Sequence record: SRR20825010_290
DNA length: 34,621 nucleotides
Reading direction: 5' to 3' (one strand)
In this document: positions 1-8,122 of the stretch, one piece after another
Layout: each line of letters begins with the position of its first letter
How positions within the stretch are numbered: position 1 is the first letter of the stretch
The notes under the pieces: generated by a model
Told to the model about the DNA's origin: nothing
Seen by the model: only the letters and a program-made list of their open reading frames with translations
The model's database searches: none
Position numbers and translations under genes: made by a program

Positions 1-45
1 GCGATTGAGTTTTGGTAGCGTTGATTCTGGGATTTTTCGCCTCAT
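1..45 (-). CDS. Probable 5' end of a gene running off the left edge (MRRKIPESTLPKLNR...)
   Basis: Minus frame is open from 309 to the edge. The ATG at 45 follows an A/T-rich leader and a TATCTTGC -7-like box (~73-80), the same variant seen upstream of gyrA. Upstream in-frame ATGs (e.g. 180, 222, 264) are alternatives. Confidence 0.35.
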   Translation of the reverse strand, partial: MRRKIPESTLPKLNR

Positions 46-123
46 GATAAATGATATTGTTTTGAAAGTTTTCGCAAGATAATATATTGAGAAATAGTTT
101 GTTCGAGCAGAAGAATCAATTGA

Positions 124-154
124 TGGGTATATAATGTTCTGCGTTATGTTACTT
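124..154 (+). other. Degenerate dif-like (XerC/XerD) site with a 9-bp spacer
   Basis: TGGGTATATAA-TGTTCTGCG-TTATGTTACTT; each arm matches 9/11 to the arms of the 4298-4325 site. Confidence 0.4.
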
Positions 155-371
155 AGCTTTGACCTGTAGGTGGGATTCATAGTTTTAGAGAAGGCCATTC
201 TTTTTACTTCTAAGCATTTCATATTATACTTAGTATTAGTAGGAGTGGAGCACTCATTTGGCATTTTTGGTATAGCAGTACAAGCGAAATTAGAAATAGG
301 CTCATAGACTTAGTCTTAAGTAATGAAAAGATTAAAATAGGCAGCATAAAATTTCATTGCTCATAACCTTA

Positions 372-716
372 TCACACCATTGCTTTATTACAATAAGTTG
401 CCTTCTCAAAATTCCTGATATTGATGGATAGGATAGGGACACTTGGAAACAAAAACTTTAATTCTTTGATTATCTTGTTGGACAAATGACTTTTTTGTTC
501 CGTTGTTCGGCCTTCCATGATATTGCCAAAAACGTGAATGAAATAACCTTGAGAATTTCCAACAGTATAATATTCAAAGGGATTAATTCTTACCTTAATA
601 TCGTCCTTTTCAAAAAGATGGGTTGATTCAGCTGCGTCATATACAACCCGAATAATTTCTTCAGGTGATTTCAATTTTATGATGTTTTCCGAGCAGTCGA
701 TTACGAAATGTGGCAT
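372..716 (-). CDS. 5-carboxymethyl-2-hydroxymuconate isomerase (CHMI/HpcD-like, tautomerase superfamily)
   Basis: N-terminal MPHFVIDCS (Pro-1 after Met removal), DIKVR, FIHV..I.EGRT.EQK pattern, 114 aa. Confidence 0.85.
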   Translation of the reverse strand: MPHFVIDCSENIIKLKSPEEIIRVVYDAAESTHLFEKDDIKVRINPFEYYTVGNSQGYFIHVFGNIMEGRTTEQKSHLSNKIIKELKFLFPSVPILSINIRNFEKATYCNKAMV

Positions 717-761
717 TTTGATTTCAGTTTAAATGATTGATACTAGCTAATATATTGCATA

Positions 762-1163
762 CTAAACAGTAGCGTTTTTCACCACTTTAAGTTGCCAGTA
801 AGTGGCAATAATTGTCACATATTCCAAACCAATAAGCCAAAAACTGATATCACTAAAGAAAGATAAGTGATCTCCGCCAAGTGGAATAATAAAAACAGGG
901 ACAGTAATAATTGCATCAAGCACTATGGCATTTAAAAACATAAAAAAGCCCAATACAAGACCATTGGTTTTATGTCCCTTCCTGTAGTAAATATGTGCTG
1001 CTAAGTAAGCAGCTGGCAACATAGCTACCATTAACGCTAAGTTGGCCTGAAGGTCAGGGTCATCTATTAGTGGTACATAAAAAGATCCGATAAAAACTGG
1101 AATCAACAGTACATAAACTATTATAGAGCTAACAATTGCATGCTTAATGTTTAAATTTTTCAT
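762..1163 (-). CDS. Four-TM membrane protein, DUF5367-like
   Basis: Four hydrophobic segments; LDAIITVPVFI..GG...FF.D..FW pattern recalled from this family. Confidence 0.65.
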   Translation of the reverse strand: MKNLNIKHAIVSSIIVYVLLIPVFIGSFYVPLIDDPDLQANLALMVAMLPAAYLAAHIYYRKGHKTNGLVLGFFMFLNAIVLDAIITVPVFIIPLGGDHLSFFSDISFWLIGLEYVTIIATYWQLKVVKNATV

Positions 1164-1245
1164 AATGTTTGAATTTGGGTTTTACCTATTTTAAAATGGG
1201 TGTAGAAAATTGTCCCTAATTGTATCTGAATTCGAGAAAACAGAT

Positions 1246-1278
1246 AAATAAAGGTTTAAAAAATGTAAACCTTTATTT
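1246..1278 (-). terminator. Perfect 13-bp inverted repeat, probable terminator or attenuator after the NmrA-like gene
   Basis: AAATAAAGGTTTA-aaaaatg-TAAACCTTTATTT. Confidence 0.55.
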
Positions 1279-1314
1279 TCAGGCATGACGATATCTTGTT
1301 AAACGGGTTCAGGT

Positions 1315-2157
1315 TTATAGTACTCCTGAGGCTACACTATTCCAAACCCCTGTACTTGCAGTTTCTTTGGCATACTGACTAAAATCCTTCGGCTTCCTGC
1401 CCAGCACTTTTTCTATGTCTCCGGTAATCATATTGTTACCCTTGGCATCTAGCACTTCGGTAAACAAATAGTTAATCAACCAGATGTAATCATCAGGCAC
1501 ATTGGCCTGCTTCAACATGTTGACATAAGCATCCATTGAAATTGACGTGAATTGAATTTCGCGGTCAGCTTGCTTGGCTATTTCTTGCACCACTTCTTCG
1601 AAAGTAAGCACCCTAGGGCCCGTCAATTCATACAACTGTCCGTTATGCTCTTCATTGGTTAAGGCCGCTACCACCACGGCTGCAATATCATCAGTATTCA
1701 CATACGGTACCTTTGCCTCAGCTTTGGGTAGCGCAACATGCCCTGCTATAATTGGGTCTAAAAAGAAGCTCTCACTAAAATTTTGCATAAACCAGCTCGC
1801 TCTCGCAATAGTGTAATCCACTCCCGAATGGATGACCACCTGCTCACATAACTCAGCTTCACGCTCGCCTTTACCAGAAAGCAATACGGCTTTTTTTACA
1901 CCACTTCTCTTTGCCAGCTTTATCAAAGCCTCAATCGAATCAAGTGCGCCAGGCACAGCCAAATCAGGTTGATAGGTGATGTACATTTTTTCTATGCCCT
2001 CCAAAGCCTTGCCCCAGGTGGTCTCATCATTCCAATCAAAAGGAATGGAGGCCCTTCTTGATCCTATGCGAACAGGATAGTTGAGCGTTTTTAATTGTTC
2101 TACTACTTTGCGGCCGGTTTTTCCCGTGCCACCGATAACTAAAATGTTGTTTTTCAT
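1315..2157 (-). CDS. NmrA-family NAD(P)H-binding protein (atypical SDR)
   Basis: ILVIGGTGKTG Rossmann motif, FDW.D, R.SWFMQNF, DIA, YELTGP. Confidence 0.9.
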   Translation of the reverse strand: MKNNILVIGGTGKTGRKVVEQLKTLNYPVRIGSRRASIPFDWNDETTWGKALEGIEKMYITYQPDLAVPGALDSIEALIKLAKRSGVKKAVLLSGKGEREAELCEQVVIHSGVDYTIARASWFMQNFSESFFLDPIIAGHVALPKAEAKVPYVNTDDIAAVVVAALTNEEHNGQLYELTGPRVLTFEEVVQEIAKQADREIQFTSISMDAYVNMLKQANVPDDYIWLINYLFTEVLDAKGNNMITGDIEKVLGRKPKDFSQYAKETASTGVWNSVASGVL

Positions 2158-2159
2158 GA

Positions 2160-2675
2160 CTATAATTGATTAAAATTTGTTTTTGTATTCATAAAAGTTG
2201 CTGCCAGCGCTAGTACAAATGAAAGTACCGAAAACACTGTTCTGATCATATGCAGCTTGTTCCATGGTGATTCGTAATTTTTTCTGATGGTTGCCAATTC
2301 CTTGAGGCTAAACTTATCCAGCTGCAACGTCTCTAAAGCATTATTTAGGGGTACATTGCCCATGCCTGTAACACCAATGGTTCCGATCAGATAAGTGACA
2401 GTCGCAGCAAGTAAAACCCAAAAGGTGCTCCCTGATTGATAGTGCTGCATAGTGCTCATAGCTAGTAAAACCGCGCTGCCCAAGAAGATGATTATGAATG
2501 CCGGATTGATGATCGCCCTGTTGATAGACTGCATGGTTTCCAGATAGGCGAAATCTGAAACTCTTCGAGTACCCGGTATTACTGATACAAACCAAGCAAA
2601 GAACAATCCTGCAGACAGACCAGTAAGTAATACCGCGACATACAGTGTGATTTGTTTTGTTGATAGTTCCATCAT
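2160..2675 (-). CDS. DUF1772 / anthrone oxygenase-like membrane protein
   Basis: GL.AGLFF, MQSINRAI.NP.F, NVPLNNAL, W...H.IRT motifs. Start moved to ATG 2675 (or 2672), which overlaps the upstream pseudogene stop (TAATG). Confidence 0.85.
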   Translation of the reverse strand: MMELSTKQITLYVAVLLTGLSAGLFFAWFVSVIPGTRRVSDFAYLETMQSINRAIINPAFIIIFLGSAVLLAMSTMQHYQSGSTFWVLLAATVTYLIGTIGVTGMGNVPLNNALETLQLDKFSLKELATIRKNYESPWNKLHMIRTVFSVLSFVLALAATFMNTKTNFNQL

Positions 2676-3008
2676 TATAATGCGTTTGTTGTTGTCAGCC
2701 ACTTTTTAAGCTTGGCCAATTCGCTTTGAGTTGATTTTATTACCCTTGGGCATTCTCCTTTTCACAAAAACCTGCCCTCGTAGATCTTTGTGCCTTAGTC
2801 AAGCATATTGCTATCGTGAATACTTTGCGCGGATTCCGTTTTTGGTGGCATGAATTACACTTGACCTGTAGCACCTTATAAGCCTCTTCTTTTAAGTGAT
2901 AGGCCTCGATAGCCCAAACTTGAGCAGCGCTGATCTCTTCCGAGTGATATTGGAAGGAAAACAGAGAAATGCTATTATGGTCTGTGCTTTAAAGTTTATT
3001 CGTCTCAT
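2675..3008 (-). pseudogene. Frameshifted small monoheme cytochrome c-like gene (missed by the ORF track)
   Basis: Pieces across frames: MRRINFKAQTIIAFLC / ...LKEEAYKVLQVKCNSCHQKRNPRKVFT / NMLD*GTKIYE / QVFVKRRMPKGNKI / ELAKLKKWLTTTNAL*. CxxCH at 2845-2859 with a distal MP motif. Confidence 0.75.
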
Positions 3009-3060
3009 GCTCTTTTTGTTTAAGATTATGAGACAAAGCTGCGGCTTATGCTACCGTTCT

Positions 3061-3097
3061 ATTTGTCTGAAAAGGAGTATGATTTGTTCGAAAAGGA
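3061..3097 (-). promoter_or_regulatory. Putative AraC-family operator: 16-bp direct repeats 21 bp apart
   Basis: ATTTGTCTGAAAAGGA (3061-3076) and ATTTGTTCGAAAAGGA (3082-3097), upstream of a CAGCTTTG -7-like box (~3035-3042, minus strand). Confidence 0.65.
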
Positions 3098-3955
3098 TTA
3101 CCACTTTATTTCGCTGGGCCGGAAGCCAAATTTCTTGGCAAAGGCATTGGAGAATGAACTTAGACTGTCATAACCGACATGCCAGGCGGCTTCCTGGATA
3201 GAGAGCTGATTATTTCTCAATAAATTGTGAGCGGTAGTGAGGCGCTCGTTTTGTAGGTATTTGAATACCGGTACACCAAACAATTCCTTAAAGTTTTTCT
3301 TTAGCTTAAAAGTATTCAAACCAATTTCCTTTGAGAGTTCGGAAAGGGAAGGCGGGTTGTCAAGGTTATCGGAAAGAATTTCTTTAGCACGCTGCAGTCG
3401 CTGCCTTTCATCGGCAGAAATAGTTTCTTCGCTTATAATAGAAAGCTGACCAAAAAAATGAGCTAAAAGCGAAGTCATTTGACTTTTGAAAAACACCATT
3501 TTAGCCTTTCCCTTATACTTGTTATTAAATATCTGATCTACGATATGCTGCATTTCAGGGGACATGAAAAAACTAGGTCCTTCTACATAGGCAGCTTTTG
3601 GATTAACCAACTGCTGCAACATTTCACCAAAAAGTTCGCCTTCTTGATGTGGCAACTTATCCAGATTTCTTATGGATGTAGCAATCACAATACACTCCAA
3701 AGGATTAAGCGCAGATACAGTATGAATGAATTCTACTTCATTACTGGCATAGAAAGCTAGTGTTAACCCTTTGGTATAGCTGTATTTTTGATGACTATCA
3801 CCATACTTTACTTTCAGGTCTACATTACCCGAACCGTAAAAAGCGACAGCTATTAGCGGCTCTTCAAAAGAGCAGGTATCAACGGTTTCTTCTTCTGAAT
3901 TACCTGTTTCTACCAAAATCGTAAAATCGTTAATGTCTATGACGTCTCTGGTCAT
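3098..3955 (-). CDS. AraC-family transcriptional regulator
   Basis: C-terminal double HTH: PPSLSELSKEIGLNTFKLKKNFKELFG ... AWHVGYDSLSSFSNAFAKKFGFRPS. Confidence 0.93.
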   Translation of the reverse strand: MTRDVIDINDFTILVETGNSEEETVDTCSFEEPLIAVAFYGSGNVDLKVKYGDSHQKYSYTKGLTLAFYASNEVEFIHTVSALNPLECIVIATSIRNLDKLPHQEGELFGEMLQQLVNPKAAYVEGPSFFMSPEMQHIVDQIFNNKYKGKAKMVFFKSQMTSLLAHFFGQLSIISEETISADERQRLQRAKEILSDNLDNPPSLSELSKEIGLNTFKLKKNFKELFGVPVFKYLQNERLTTAHNLLRNNQLSIQEAAWHVGYDSLSSFSNAFAKKFGFRPSEIKW

Positions 3956-4109
3956 AAATTGGCTGCTGTAGTTTCAATTGTTAATTACGAGATAATAATT
4001 GGGTTAATCGAGGCAGAAGTTAAAAATTAGACTTTTTCATCACGTCCGGAACAGGGCTGGGCAGCTTAATGAGAGCCAAGAGCTTCAATGAGAAACGAAA
4101 GCGTTCGGT

Positions 4110-4129
4110 TCCCGAGATTTCTCTTGGGA
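4110..4129. repeat. Short hairpin, REP-like remnant
   Basis: TCCCGAGA-TTTC-TCTTGGGA, an 8-bp stem with one G-T pair, followed by TGA. Confidence 0.35.
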
Positions 4130-4156
4130 TGAATATAATATAGAATTATAGAACAA
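4128..4156 (-). other. Degenerate inverted dif-like site
   Basis: Minus strand TTGTTCTATAA-TTCTATA-TTATATTCATC; the XerC-type arm is 10/11 to the 4298 site, the spacer is 7 bp and the XerD-type arm is decayed. Confidence 0.55.
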
Positions 4157-4175
4157 GCGGTCGGTGGTGTAGGCC

Positions 4176-4292
4176 GTGTTTTGCTTTTACATAAGATCAT
4201 TACCGTTATCGTACTGCACACTTTCGCAAAGGCTTCAGCGTACAAGTGACGATAACTGATCTTATGTAAACCACTACGTGGATGCAAAACAC
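4176..4292. repeat. Long imperfect inverted repeat containing two opposed dif-like sites (4184-4216, 4245-4272)
   Basis: Pairings 4176-4184/4284-4292 (9 bp), 4186-4199/4257-4270 (14 bp, perfect) and 4205-4212/4249-4256 (8 bp); 5-nt bulge at 4200-4204; side hairpin CCAC-TAC-GTGG at 4271-4281. Confidence 0.85.
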
Positions 4293-4297
4293 TATGT

Positions 4298-4325
4298 TTG
4301 TTATATAATTTATATTATGTTAAAT
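4298..4325 (+). other. dif: dif site (XerC/XerD recombination site), canonical 11-6-11 geometry
   Basis: TTGTTATATAA-TTTATA-TTATGTTAAAT; the right arm is identical to the E. coli XerD arm; intergenic. Confidence 0.85.
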
Positions 4326-4334
4326 AAAAGATCA

Positions 4335-4370
4335 AAGAAGAAGGGAGATTGTTAAACCTCCCTCTTTCTC
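4335..4370 (-). terminator. Intrinsic terminator of the gyrA-TPR operon
   Basis: Minus strand GAGGGAGGTT-TAAC-AATCTCCCTT followed by CTTCTTT, just after the TPR stop. Confidence 0.7.
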
Positions 4371-4376
4371 TCTATA

Positions 4377-5546
4377 TTATTCTCCGCCCTCTAAGGCTTC
4401 TATTCTTGCAAGGATTGCATCTCTTTTAGCATCCATTCCCAATTGGTCATATACAGTACTCAAAGGATTAAGTATGAACAGATCATTTGGCTTAGACTTC
4501 TCAGCTTGCTCAAAATTAGGCAATGCCAATCTGAACTTGACATAGGCCTCTTCACGTTTCTTATCGTAAGCTGCATTGTCAGTTAAATCGTTTGCTGCTT
4601 TAAGAATTTCAACACCTTCGTTAAAATAAACGCTACCTACTACGTAAGAAGCATCTGGATAATCAGGCTGAAGCTCTAAGGCTTTTCTTGCTGACTCCAA
4701 AGCAGCAGGATAATCCTGTGCGTTATACTGCAAGAAAGCGAGCGTGTAATATAGAATGGCAGTTTTATCGCCACTATCAATATTCTTTTGAATTCCTGCA
4801 ATAGCTTCATCCAATTTATCACCCTGAATCAAGATGTCAATTTCAAAGTCTCTATACACTTTTTCATCAGGAAACGCTTTCTGGGCCATTCTTGAATATT
4901 TCAAAGCATTATCGAAGTCTTTATTGGTCAAGTACATGTCGATCAGACCATTGTAAGCGAAGTTAGTATTCTCAAACTCTTCATTTGACTCTACTACCGC
5001 TACATAAAATGGAATGGCCTCCTCAAACAAGTCAGCATTATAAGCACTATAACCTGCATAGAAGTTCATAATAACATCCGCTTTGATCATTGCCGATAAG
5101 CTGAAGTAATTAAAGGCTCCTGCAAAATCATCTGCTTCAAAGTAATCGTTTCCTTTTTTGTTCAAAAGGTTTTGAAGAAAAATGTAACCCTCTCCACCAC
5201 CAATGAAATCACCATTTGAGTTCATCACCGGAGGGAAATATAGATCTTCCTTAAGATCCGCGTCTCCTTTTTCCACTGCAGTATTGAAGTAGGCAAATGA
5301 CTCTTTCGCTAAATCAAGGTTCTCCATATCAGCTTTAAACTGATATAACTTTGCTTTTCCAAGAATTACATATACCTCGGGATCATCTTTGGTCTCAGCA
5401 TTTTCTGAGGCCTGTTTGGCCAATGTAAGTGCTTCTGCGTATTCGCCTTTTTTAAGTGCCTTATCAGCACTTTTTAGCACTTTCTTTTGTCCGTATACCC
5501 CTGCTACAAAAAACAATAGCAAGGCGGTAAAAAATAGCTTTTTCAT
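4377..5546 (-). CDS. Secreted tetratricopeptide-repeat protein
   Basis: Signal peptide; several TPR-like helical repeats (e.g. YYTLAFLQYNAQDYPAALESARKALELQPDYPDA); position downstream of gyrA is usual in Bacteroidota. Confidence 0.88.
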   Translation of the reverse strand: MKKLFFTALLLFFVAGVYGQKKVLKSADKALKKGEYAEALTLAKQASENAETKDDPEVYVILGKAKLYQFKADMENLDLAKESFAYFNTAVEKGDADLKEDLYFPPVMNSNGDFIGGGEGYIFLQNLLNKKGNDYFEADDFAGAFNYFSLSAMIKADVIMNFYAGYSAYNADLFEEAIPFYVAVVESNEEFENTNFAYNGLIDMYLTNKDFDNALKYSRMAQKAFPDEKVYRDFEIDILIQGDKLDEAIAGIQKNIDSGDKTAILYYTLAFLQYNAQDYPAALESARKALELQPDYPDASYVVGSVYFNEGVEILKAANDLTDNAAYDKKREEAYVKFRLALPNFEQAEKSKPNDLFILNPLSTVYDQLGMDAKRDAILARIEALEGGE

Positions 5547-5575
5547 GTTTTCTAGTTTCTTGTTTAAATTAAAAT

Positions 5576-8122
5576 TTAGTCTTCTGTTTTACTTTCATCT
5601 TGGTCTCCGCCTTCAACTTCAGGTGTGTCAATTGTTCCTTCAATTTGCTCTACTTCCTCTGATTGAATGTCTGATTCGATATTTTGAATCTTCTCTACAG
5701 ATGAAATAGCATCACCTTCATTTAAGCGTATAAGTTTAACACCTTGAGTAGCCCTTCCCATTACTCTAAGAGAATCCACTGATATTCTAATGGTAATTCC
5801 TGATTTGTTAATGATCATAAGGTCATCGCTGTCGATTACCTCTTTAATGGCCACAAGGTTTCCTGTTTTTTCAGTAACGTTGATGGTTTTAACCCCTTTA
5901 CCTCCTCTTTTAGTAATTCGGTAATCATCTATTGGCGAGCGCTTCCCATATCCGTTTTCAGACACAACTAATAGGTTAGCCTCTTCTCTGTTTACACATA
6001 CCATGCCAATGACCCTGTCATCTTCTCCAGCGAGCCTAAAACCCCTTACTCCAGCCGCTGTTCTACCCATCGGACGAACATCGCTTTCGTGGAAGTGAAT
6101 AGCCCTGCCAGATTTAGCTCCAATAATGATGTGATTATCACCGTTCGTGAATTTGACCTCAAGTAAGCGATCTCCTTCGTTAATTGTAATGGCATTTATA
6201 CCATTGGTACGTGGACGAGAATAAGCTTCTAAAGAAGTCTTTTTAATGGTTCCGAGCTCAGTACACATGACTACATAATTATTATTAATGTAGTCTTCGT
6301 CTTTCAAATTTTGGACGTTAATGACCGCTCTGATTTTATCACCCGCTTCAATATTGATTAGGTTTTGTACCGGACGGCCTTTAGCGGTTTTACTGCCTTC
6401 TGGTAATTCCCATACTTTTTTCCAGAACACTTTACCAAACTCAGTGAAAATGAGCAAGTAATCATGCGTCATTCCAGTAAACAGGTATTCTGTAAAGTCA
6501 TCTGTTTTGGAACCAGCGCCTTTAGAGCCAACTCCTCCTCTACCTTGCGTTCTATATTCAGACAATAAGGTTCTTTTGACATAACCTAGGTGAGAAATAG
6601 TGATTAGCATTTCCTCATTAGGAATCATGTCTTCAGCACTGAAATCTTCCGCAGAATGGATAATATCCGTTCTACGCTCATCACCATATCGGTCTTTTAT
6701 TTCTATCAACTCATTCTTTATGATCTCCATTCTAAGCTCCTCTTTTTCAAGGATTTCCTTTAGTCCGGCAATCAACTCCATGATCTCATCGTATTCCTTT
6801 TGAATCTTGTCTCTTTCCAGACCCGTGAGTCTTTGGAGACGCATTTCCAAAATGGCTTTGGCTTGAATTTCAGAGAGGTCAAACTTCTCCATCAAACCAG
6901 TTTTGGCTACTTCAGGATCTCTAGAGTTTCTGATCAAGGAAATTACTTCGTCAAGATGATCTAATGCAATAAGATACCCCTGAAGGATATGGGCTCTTTT
7001 TTCTGCTTCATTCAGTTCGTACTGAGTTCTACGAACAACCACTTCGTGCCTATGTTCAACATAGTACTTGATGAGGTCCTTAGTATTCAGCGTATAAGGT
7101 CTTCCTTTTACAAGGGCTACGTTGTTTACACTGAAAGAAGATTGTAGTTGGGTATATTTGAACAAATTGTTCAAAACCACATTACCAATGGCATCTTTCT
7201 TCAATTCATAAACGATACGCATTCCATTACGATCCGACTCATCACGTAAATCTGAAATACCTTCAATTCGTTTTTCATTGATTAAAGCAGCTGTCTTTTC
7301 GATCATACTGGCCTTGTTAACCATGTATGGAATCTCTGTTACGATGATCCGCTCACGCCCAGAAGGCATGGTTTCAATTTCAGACTTTGCCCTCAACATT
7401 ACCCTACCTCTACCCGTTTCGAAAGCAGATTTCACACCAGTATAACCATAAATGGTTCCTCCGGTTGGGAAGTCAGGTGCAGTAATGTGCTGCATCAATT
7501 CTTCTAAAGAGATGTCGTTATTCTCTATATAAGCAATGGTACCGTTCACTACCTCTGTAAGGTTGTGAGGCGCCATATTAGTCGCCATACCTACCGCAAT
7601 CCCTGAACTACCATTCAACAATAAGTTGGGAAGCTTTCCAGGAAGTACCGATGGTTCCTTTAAGGAATCATCAAAGTTGAATTGAAAATCAACGGTATCT
7701 TTATTAATATCTGTTAAAAGCTCGTCTGCAATTCTTCTTAACCTGGCCTCGGTATAACGCATGGCTGCAGGAGAATCTCCATCTACAGAACCAAAGTTTC
7801 CTTGTCCGTCAACCAACGGATAGCGCAAAGACCAAGGTTGCGCCATACGCACCATGGTATCGTATACTGATGAATCACCGTGTGGGTGATACTTACCCAG
7901 CACCTCTCCTACGATTCTGGCTGATTTCTTATATGATTTGTTCCAGTTTACCCCAAGGTCCAACATACCAAAGAGTACTCTTCTATGAACGGGTTTTAGG
8001 CCGTCTCTTACATCTGGTAAAGCTCTTGAAATAATCACCGACATGGAGTAGTCGATGTAGGCTCCCTTCATTTCATCTTCAATATTGATAGGGATGATTG
8101 TTTCGTTCGTTCCTTCTGCCAT
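5576..8122 (-). CDS. gyrA: DNA gyrase subunit A
   Basis: [30 protein letters not shown] catalytic Tyr, GyrA-box QGRGGVG, C-terminal pinwheel repeats. Confidence 0.99.

Follow-up and report, generated by a model that had tools for sequence, protein, structure and literature searches.

Beside the dif site of a 34,621-nt stretch of DNA from sequence record SRR20825010_290 (hereafter the window), a bulged hairpin at positions 4176-4292 carries two inverted dif-like arms. The question raised by this locus is whether the hairpin is itself a site at which XerC and XerD, the recombinases of the host, act, or whether it plays some other part. A preliminary description of the sequence had proposed a folded single-stranded DNA (ssDNA) substrate for one-way Xer recombination, modelled on the attP of the phage CTX-phi. 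Our analysis leads us to think it somewhat probable that the hairpin represents a conserved end-module, able to fold, of a cassette that has no integrase and sits at the dif site of a Roseivirga-like bacterium, with an accessory role and the crossover elsewhere. We read it as an accessory module because it is left intact, lies outside the junctions, is optional and can be exchanged.

The hairpin and the adjoining dif site

The hairpin and the site that follows it are made up of these parts:

4176-4184 with 4284-4292, plus strand: outer closing stem, GTGTTTTGC with GCAAAACAC, taken from the fold, with compensatory changes in all 9 pairs
4186-4199 with 4257-4270: lower part of the inner stem, TTTACATAAGATCA with TGATCTTATGTAAA, 14 nt, 100% complementary
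4205-4212 with 4249-4256: upper part of the inner stem, GTTATCGT with ACGATAAC, 8 nt, 100% complementary
4200-4204, plus strand: bulge TTACC, 5 nt, read from the sequence
4186-4212, plus strand: 5' strand of the inner hairpin, consisting of an inverted XerD-like arm TTTACATAA, GATCA, the bulge TTACC and GTTATCGT
4213-4248, plus strand: apical loop of 36 nt, opening with a conserved ACTG and varying in length and sequence among copies
4249-4270, plus strand: 3' strand of the inner hairpin, ACGATAA / CTGATC / TTATGTAAA, a dif-like site in direct orientation relative to dif
4271-4283, plus strand: small side hairpin CCAC-TAC-GTGG, taken from the fold and different from copy to copy
4293-4297, plus strand: linker TATGT, 5 nt, from the outer stem to the XerC arm
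4298-4325, plus strand: chromosomal dif, with XerC arm TTGTTATATAA, central region TTTATA and XerD arm TTATGTTAAAT (11-6-11, 28 bp, arms partly palindromic)

Folded as ssDNA, positions 4176-4292 have a minimum free energy (MFE) of -29.9 kcal/mol, compared with a shuffle mean of -9.9 +/- 2.5 (z -8.2), and none of 200 dinucleotide-preserving shuffles reached this energy. Both inner inverted repeats and the 5-nt bulge are present as first described, and the asymmetry of the spacers, 6 nt on one strand versus 11 nt on the other, can be read straight from the sequence. The preliminary description had also placed an extrahelical G4248 in the C-type arm; an extension of three pairs (A4213-T4247, C4214-G4246 and T4215-A4245) with this base bulged out is readable in the letters, whereas the MFE fold pairs the loop otherwise. 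The distance to dif had been given as 25 bp and needs correction, since dif starts 27 nt past the inner stem and 5 nt past the outer one. No tRNA or tmRNA was found within the window.

The intact dif that had been noted nearby is a genuine chromosomal dimer-resolution site. Genome-wide tests of dif copy number, skew and Xer genes were made in relatives of the window genome. With up to 3 mismatches allowed, dif gave exactly one match in each of five Roseivirga genomes and the control gave 0; the 28-mer is unchanged in all six Roseivirga sequences aligned, and the DNA past the XerC arm diverges immediately. Among 61 sampled genomes of the family, 46 contain dif (43 singly, 3 in two copies), and the reversed control pattern produced 1 match. 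On the complete chromosome of the relative G138, dif occupies 2452687-2452714, ~100 bp from the cumulative GC-skew maximum at 2452811 (400 kb scanned). XerD (TIGR02225), scoring above the NCBIfam cut-off, and a second paralogue were found in all four relatives tested. The XerD arm of the window dif is one that we take to be identical to the E. coli dif arm. The protein of the neighbouring tetratricopeptide repeat (TPR) gene is 94% identical both to that of R. echinicomitans and to one from a Roseivirga metagenome-assembled genome, and these relatives put the window within Roseivirga or close to it (Cytophagales, Bacteroidota). PMC3025954 reports a predicted dif in 19 of 19 Bacteroidetes genomes.

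The hairpin family and its conservation

When the 170 nt upstream of dif were folded in other genomes, the same nested design was found in different sequences, and a first alignment of 7 copies contained compensatory changes in 12 of 33 predicted pairs. The covariance model R1 covers the hairpin together with 7 nt of the XerC arm, which were included because a model of the hairpin only failed to align cleanly. R1 matched 31 of 151 sampled genomes of the family and 10 of 151 sampled genomes of the order. The window contains a single match (97 bits), and the runner-up, at 18 bits, is the same locus on the reverse strand. Over 43 distinct copies, 92.5% of pair cells are standard, compared with 75.9% in shuffles, and 0 of 500 shuffles equalled this figure; compensatory changes affect 20 of 27 pairs in an alignment that was fitted to the model and therefore favours structure somewhat, and controls in which the pairing was slid were only 32-44% paired. 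Homologues that keep the bulged geometry thus exist, and pairing maintained by covariation fits a function in the folded state.

Conservation reaches at least 90% at TT.ACATAA (5' arm), TTAT (3' arm), the CTG with which the inner spacer opens, and the upper-stem bases GTTAT/ATAAC; in the arms, it is the XerD-arm core that is conserved in this way. A XerC arm directly follows the hairpin in 39 of the 43 distinct copies, a count that is somewhat inflated by the 7 nt of this arm in R1; R1 has no bearing on the remainder of the XerC arm, the spacer or the XerD arm. In 27 copies, a 5-6-nt linker leads to canonical dif with its 6-nt spacer. In a further 12, what follows is a XerC arm that an 8-11-nt spacer (typically TGTCCTGCG) joins to a XerD-like arm, and the four copies with neither site are truncated or tandem.

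Incomplete copies occur at several loci. In L096 (G128:C5:261300-261792), three tandem hairpins stand beside dif with zero cargo between them; of these, the distal two break off either inside the inner XerD-like arm or after it. In L093, L097 and L095 (genomes G061, G054 and G120, respectively), a truncated hairpin consisting of the first ~20 nt (GTGATTTGCTTTAACAT...) lies ~40 nt upstream of the distal hairpin, and these truncated 5' halves break inside the inverted XerD-like arm.

A strong fold with covariation, located in a 420-nt intergenic region upstream of a minus-strand AraC gene, could also belong to a structured RNA whose position next to dif is incidental, namely a small RNA, a transcription terminator or insulator, or the AraC leader. 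We regard this as highly improbable. Rfam yielded 0 matches at the gathering score in the window, and the best E-value of any match overlapping the hairpin in a permissive search of 3940-4400 was 1.8. The wobble pairs have no strand bias, a T-tract is absent, the conserved bases are XerD-arm bases, and the distance to the XerC arm is a constant 5-6 nt irrespective of the neighbouring gene or its orientation. A known RNA was likewise rejected, as Rfam gave no match in the window or in four related loci.

It is also quite improbable that the hairpin is a decaying scar, that is, the leftover attP of an ancestral ssDNA phage or of an IMEX (integrative mobile element exploiting Xer), or a palindrome kept by template switching. 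The conservation over 43 distinct copies in many genomes, with compensated pairs and invariant core bases, makes a functionless scar hard to reconcile with the data, despite the deletion in the XerD-like arms of the window copy and the truncated and tandem copies in G128 and G025. Dif-flanked microvirus proviruses with an extra inverted site are known from Bacteroidetes, according to PMC3091885, and could have supplied such a remnant; against this, no phage genes were found in the cassettes examined, and a degenerate hairpin pattern had 0 matches in viral contigs. A BLAST comparison of 4120-4330 with plasmids and phages returned short stretches at or beside dif and nothing in the hairpin. An origin from a plasmid or a phage was rejected, the same comparison having yielded nothing beyond 27 nt of dif on a Pseudoalteromonas chromid and a 35-nt chance-level match in an archaeal virus. 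The preliminary description had advised a search of Bacteroidota ssDNA phages, plasmids and islands for this hairpin; the hairpin was recovered from genomes of the family and the order and was missing from the viral contigs and from the plasmid and phage sequences compared. A dispersed repeat or miniature inverted-repeat transposable element was rejected as well: five Roseivirga genomes have no other copy except a same-locus half in G005, and the window has one match.

Cassette junctions and the role of the hairpin

The left border of the cassette comprises two features:

124-154, plus strand: left junction, with the old chromosomal XerC arm TGGGTATATAA at 124-134, a 9-nt central region TGTTCTGCG at 135-143 and a XerD-like arm TTATGTTACTT at 144-154
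135-330, plus strand: conserved non-coding left-end module, AGCTTTGACCTGTAGGTGGGATTCATAGTTT ... GGAGCACTCATTTGGCA, recognized by eye in ~11-12 of 14 cassette left ends aligned with MAFFT

A loose dif scan gave 3 matches in the window compared with 1.4 in shuffles, one being 124-154 and another the true dif. In all five Roseivirga genomes, the left flank (window position 1 to ~134) is conserved, with 81-93% identity. Except in G002, which has the whole cassette in common with the window, homology extends no further than the XerC arm (query ends 110-138). The distance from this flank to dif in the five genomes is 2.0, 4.2, 9.2, 2.0 and 2.5 kb, and the gene content differs. Since flank homology ends at the XerC arm and different genes extend from there to dif, the window cassette is delimited as ~135 to 4308, or 4.2 kb. 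The 9-nt spacer of the left junction is too long for a normal duplex Xer site.

At the other end, cassette junctions are located at the separate XerC arm 5 nt downstream of the hairpin, at the border of this arm with the central region. A search motif for the long-spacer junction, which is independent of the hairpin, was found at 28 places in 17 of 151 family genomes, with 0 control matches. Where a genome has several such junctions, they share a contig and strand near dif, ~2-18 kb apart, except in G024 and for one of three in G025. Where a genome has at least two hairpins, they share a strand and a contig and are spaced by 2-12 kb; the hairpin nearest the core chromosome abuts the true dif, and distal hairpins abut a long-spacer site. 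In the broad sense, these cassettes are IMEXs: they have no recombinase of their own, dif-like sites flank them at the host dif, and their presence varies between strains.

The hairpin is not a fixed part of this arrangement. A 55.8-kb metagenomic contig of run X1 matches window positions 1-4161 and 4299-6000, and 121 other letters replace 4162-4298. In G002 the cassette is that of the window and the hairpin is of the R. echinicomitans type; G005 has 40 nt identical to the window hairpin together with different cargo and a different 3' half. The dif loci of G003 and G004, two Roseivirga species, lack this hairpin, and in L041, L049, L050, L057, L058 and L060 an inverted site lies 22-70 nt from dif and the hairpin is absent. 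The hairpin thus appears to be dispensable and exchangeable between cassettes. The same observations bear on the idea that the hairpin is an immobile, host-owned accessory sequence of dif, similar to the sequences beside the XerC arm of plasmid cer and psi, which is the least probable of the explanations considered. Such a sequence could be expected to lie always on the XerC-arm side, immediately adjacent, and to be conserved across genera, as the hairpin is. However, it is present in 31 of 151 sampled genomes compared with 46 of 61 for dif, is repeated once per cassette in arrays, has been swapped between strains with the same flanks, and is missing at dif in G003 and G004. Origin of the arrangement by nested integration, with a mini-IMEX entering a hairpin-less end, was rejected because the hybrid site that it predicts upstream of the hairpin is absent.

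A second inverted site lies upstream of the hairpin:

4132-4156, plus strand: inverted dif-like site 'a', reverse complement TTGTTCTATAA TTCTATA TTATATT, pairing with dif in ssDNA

Positions 4126-4328 fold as one rod (-40.8 kcal/mol, z -8.1) in which 4132-4158 pairs with 4296-4321 and the hairpin is at the tip; the minus strand of this region folds nearly as well. The spacers of the outer pair are 7 nt (4132-4156) versus 6 nt in the integrated form, or versus 9 nt in the free form as we would reconstruct it. Inverted dif-like sites with at most 5 mismatches within 250 nt of dif occur on the XerC side at 12 of 34 loci and on the XerD side at 2 of 34. Beside the XerC cleavage point, the inner site reads CTG and mismatches the TTT of dif, and the outer long-spacer site reads TGT, a partial match.

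From the junctions, whose positions are observed, we infer the following mode of entry. Cassettes would enter by XerC-catalysed strand exchange where the XerC arm borders the central region, in the manner of CTX-phi-type IMEXs, and the XerC arm of the present dif would have been brought in by the cassette, which fits the difference between the left-junction arm TGGGTATATAA and the present arm TTGTTATATAA. The ~200-nt right end would fold in ssDNA into a rod, with the attachment site paired to the inverted site and the hairpin at the apex. The hairpin would have an accessory role, offering a second dif-like duplex, this one bulged, with a conserved XerD-arm core and a central region starting with CTG; this duplex may bind XerD/XerC or stabilise the fold, and so could help to assemble or bias the recombination complex. 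An Xer-binding or fold-stabilising element is most likely what the accessory hairpin would be under this model. In G138, the strand that carries the sites in XerC-to-XerD polarity would, judging from the GC skew, be the lagging-strand template on the cassette side, a placement that makes folding during replication conceivable.

Statements on CTX-phi here and below follow PMC4246890. CTX-phi-type elements recombine at the border of the XerC arm and the central region, where XerC cleaves, and the 12-bp attP1 is active only in a fold with the inverted attP2, 90 bp distant and with a spacer of 5-7 bp (PMC4246890). The resemblance of the 6- versus 11-nt dif-like duplex to attP1 and attP2 (12 bp versus 5-7 bp; PMC4246890) favours an alternative that we consider unlikely, in which the inner hairpin is a working attP- or attC-like ssDNA core site, cleaved inside by XerCD, with another hairpin or a CTG-type site as its partner, and serves excision or hairpin exchange but not insertion at dif. 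ATAA, CTG and TTAT, which would flank the cleavage points, are conserved; some hairpins are chimeric or half copies (L004, L005 and copies 2-3 of G128); truncated 5' halves stand upstream of distal copies; and the hairpin module has been swapped between near-identical cassettes. These broken, chimeric and half copies hint at a core site without establishing it. Against it, 39 of 43 copies are intact and are then followed by the separate XerC arm where the junctions lie; no partner site whose central region starts with CTG was identified; broken copies offer few breakpoints, some of them away from cleavage positions; and hairpin-less cassette ends are still at dif. The role that the preliminary description assigned to the hairpin, a recombining single-stranded site, is therefore unproven and in part contradicted, by the crossover at the separate XerC arm 5 nt downstream and by the hairpin-less ends. 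The inner spacer, which it had noted to differ from that of dif, has a conserved CTG start, versus TTT in dif.

A broader version of the same idea, which we hold to be doubtful, makes the Bacteroidota dif an integron-like capture platform that uses the housekeeping XerCD in place of a dedicated integrase, with a folded, bulged hairpin of attC type arriving in each cassette. The inner hairpin would then be a true ssDNA site for hairpin-to-hairpin excision, reshuffling and module swaps on the lagging-strand template, and the XerC arm would serve insertion at dif.

Several points weigh against our preferred reading, the accessory end-module, in addition to the caveats on covariation and adjacency given above. 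Both XerD-like arms of the window hairpin are 1 base short of the family consensus (TTATGT-AAA versus TTATGTTAAAT), and with this deletion the window copy may be a poor Xer binder. The hairpin-less ends listed above indicate that the hairpin is not required for insertion. A few broken copies (L004 and copy 3 of G128) end near the border of the inner central region and the XerD arm, so the inner site could sometimes be cut, as a core site would be. Wobble pairs disclosed no strand preference (22 G.T cells versus 35 A.C cells). No circle or empty-site joints were present in the assembled contigs of public runs, which are uninformative either way. Finally, the right boundary of the cargo is a lone XerD arm without a XerC arm, which a simple CTX-type model leaves unexplained.

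Known systems, cargo and surroundings

The preliminary description likened the hairpin to CTX-phi. For the locus as a whole this likeness stands, in that the elements lack a recombinase, lie at dif, have a crossover on the XerC side and possess a dif-like duplex with unequal spacers; it does not extend to ssDNA phage or Rep genes, none of which were found in the cassette ORFs scanned. Two inverted dif-like sites around an unequal bubble, as in attP(+) of CTX-phi, are found both in the inner hairpin and in the outer pair, and the fold coincides with the place of strand exchange at the outer site and not at the inner hairpin. By this analogy, the pairing of 4132-4156 with 4298-4325 is the better counterpart of attP(+), with the hairpin in its apical loop. 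Like the CTX-phi IMEX of Vibrio cholerae, the cassettes are without their own recombinase and inserted at the host dif (PMC4246890). The junctions of both are at the border of the XerC arm and the central region, and both combine a central region of excessive length (9 nt here versus 12 bp in attP1) with a shorter inverted one (7 nt here versus 5-7 bp in attP2). Both involve ~150-200 nt of folded DNA, and both rebuild a functional dif at one end, so that arrays can grow. In contrast, the cassettes have no filamentous-phage or Rep genes and carry restriction-modification, defence, regulatory and metabolic cargo instead. Their inverted sites are ~140 nt apart and the loop between them is a conserved bulged hairpin, whereas those of CTX-phi are 90 bp apart and no such role of the loop is described in the available part of the source (PMC4246890). 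The cassettes belong to Bacteroidota rather than Vibrio and are known here from sequence alone.

Integrons offer a second comparison. The hairpins of attC sites carry R and L boxes. Like attC sites, the present hairpins are imperfect and bulged, sit one per cassette end and may be conserved more in pairing than in sequence; both systems stack promoter-less or small cargo units by one primary site, and for both folding of a single strand is proposed. The present hairpin is conserved in structure, yet its core bases are conserved too and the crossover is outside it, beside the cassette hairpin and not within it. Further differences are that housekeeping XerCD would replace a dedicated IntI, that the primary site is dif, and that the arms of the cassette hairpin carry Xer-arm motifs as opposed to R and L boxes. 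No tyrosine-recombinase domain was found among the scanned cassette proteins, in which no search aimed at IntI was made.

A third comparison is with microvirus proviruses of Bacteroidetes (Alpavirinae), which, according to Krupovic and Forterre 2011 (PMC3091885), have no integrase and are flanked by dif-like direct repeats. In some of them an extra dif-like site, close to one end, was compared by the authors with the inverted pair of CTX-phi (PMC3091885). They resemble the cassettes in belonging to the same phylum and in being integrase-less elements between dif-like sites. They differ in being 4.6-6.3-kb proviruses of Bacteroidales with capsid and Rep genes (PMC3091885), whereas the present cassettes have no viral genes, a Cytophagales host and conserved non-coding ends.

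The pdif modules are situated on plasmids, and their bounding sites are in inverted orientation. The bounding sites here (124-154 and 4298-4325) are, in contrast, direct repeats at a chromosomal terminus with a hairpin attached. As described in PMC7399989 and PMC5790767, the pdif modules of Acinetobacter are small recombinase-less gene modules bounded by XerC/XerD-type sites, with shuffled cargo. In the full-text literature searched, which excluded subscription journals and supplementary files, recombinase-less cassettes with structured ends at dif in Bacteroidota are undescribed beyond the microvirus proviruses.

If the accessory-module reading is correct, the terminus of many marine Bacteroidota would be a landing pad for accessory genes of restriction-modification, anti-phage defence and niche adaptation, arriving as stacked small units that bring only structured DNA ends and borrow the dimer-resolution enzymes of the host. 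Elements exploiting Xer would extend from a few phages of Proteobacteria and the microviruses of Bacteroidales to cassettes with neither replication proteins nor a recombinase, and would reach another order, the Cytophagales; this would be a step towards a natural parallel of the integron built on XerCD. The hairpin, at ~117 nt, is a short, well-defined object that is directly testable for XerC/XerD binding and cleavage, and variable islands in draft genomes can be delimited by combining the dif 28-mer with the long-spacer junction and the hairpin model.

The cargo of the window cassette and the segment upstream of its hairpin are as follows:

372-716, minus strand: CHMI-like gene (open reading frame (ORF) and Pfam)
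762-1163, minus strand: DUF5367 gene (ORF and Pfam)
1315-2157, minus strand: NmrA-like gene (ORF and Pfam)
2160-2702, minus strand: anthrone-oxygenase-like gene (ORF and Pfam)
3098-3955, minus strand: AraC-type regulator gene (ORF and Pfam)
4030-4175, plus strand: right-end non-coding segment upstream of the hairpin, with a small hairpin CCCGAGA..TCTTGGG and a single-copy, same-locus match in G001, G002 and G005

The genes left of the AraC-type regulator are small redox genes and genes of unknown function, and Pfam identified no recombinase, Rep or phage genes in the cargo (372-3955). The right-end segment has no match in G003 or G004. Directly after the long-spacer site, the left-end module consists of ~180-200 nt reading TAGCTTnGG..GGGATTAATAGTTT..GAGCACTCTTTTGCCA..TGGCAAATGTGTGCGG, with an inverted repeat inside.

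The relatives have arrays of one to three or more cassettes with restriction-modification, defence and metabolic cargo. One cassette encodes an Eco57I-type methylase, an HNH protein and a GHKL ATPase; another set, a C5 methylase, a BglII-like endonuclease and a helix-turn-helix (HTH) protein, is homologous in two genomes with 81% DNA identity. AraC-linked hydrolase and reductase genes and a carboxylesterase were also found. At L097:1246-10427 (G054), a C5 DNA methylase, a GHKL ATPase, a Z1-domain protein, DUF4420 (PD-(D/E)XK) and AIPR form a five-gene defence-type cluster, and one cassette has two beta-lactamase-family proteins, an AraC/TPR regulator, a cyclase and an NmrA-like protein. The ORFs scanned from eight other cassettes yielded no recombinase, Rep or phage domains; some ORFs of these cassettes were left unscanned, and several had no Pfam match.

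Many cassettes, though not that of the window, have a conserved non-coding right-end module of ~550 nt upstream of the hairpin or dif:

L092:930-1476, minus strand; L050:803-1359; L065:769-1376; L073:1618-2178; L076:788-1345: copies of the 550-nt module
L093:6857-7406; L087:728-1391; L108:1600-2185; L066:346-1015: further copies

The module starts with ATA and a lone XerD arm (TTATGTTAAGT) that no XerC arm precedes, and ends in an inverted dif-like site with a 7-nt spacer. It contains no convincing ORF and has no Rfam match. RNAalifold found compensatory changes in 14 of 101 pairs and paired the first XerD arm with the terminal inverted site.

On the other side of dif, the core chromosome resumes:

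4336-4369, minus strand: terminator-like hairpin of the TPR gene (inverted repeat and alignment), core chromosome, outside the element
4377-5546, minus strand: TPR protein gene
5576-8122, minus strand: gyrA

Every gene in the first 9 kb of the window is on the minus strand. The Roseivirga dif lies directly downstream of the conserved TPR gene and gyrA, with the end of the TPR terminator hairpin 11 nt past the XerD arm. Listed as a plasmid, a 1.24-Mb Pseudoalteromonas replicon (NZ_CP022523.1:279955-279981) has 27 nt identical to window 4304-4330, indicating that the dif core is strongly conserved across phyla. In run X9, contigs break inside dif (4298-4315) and one contig joins other sequence at 4293, which suggests that a second variant left of dif, from another strain or in another arrangement, is present in the same run.

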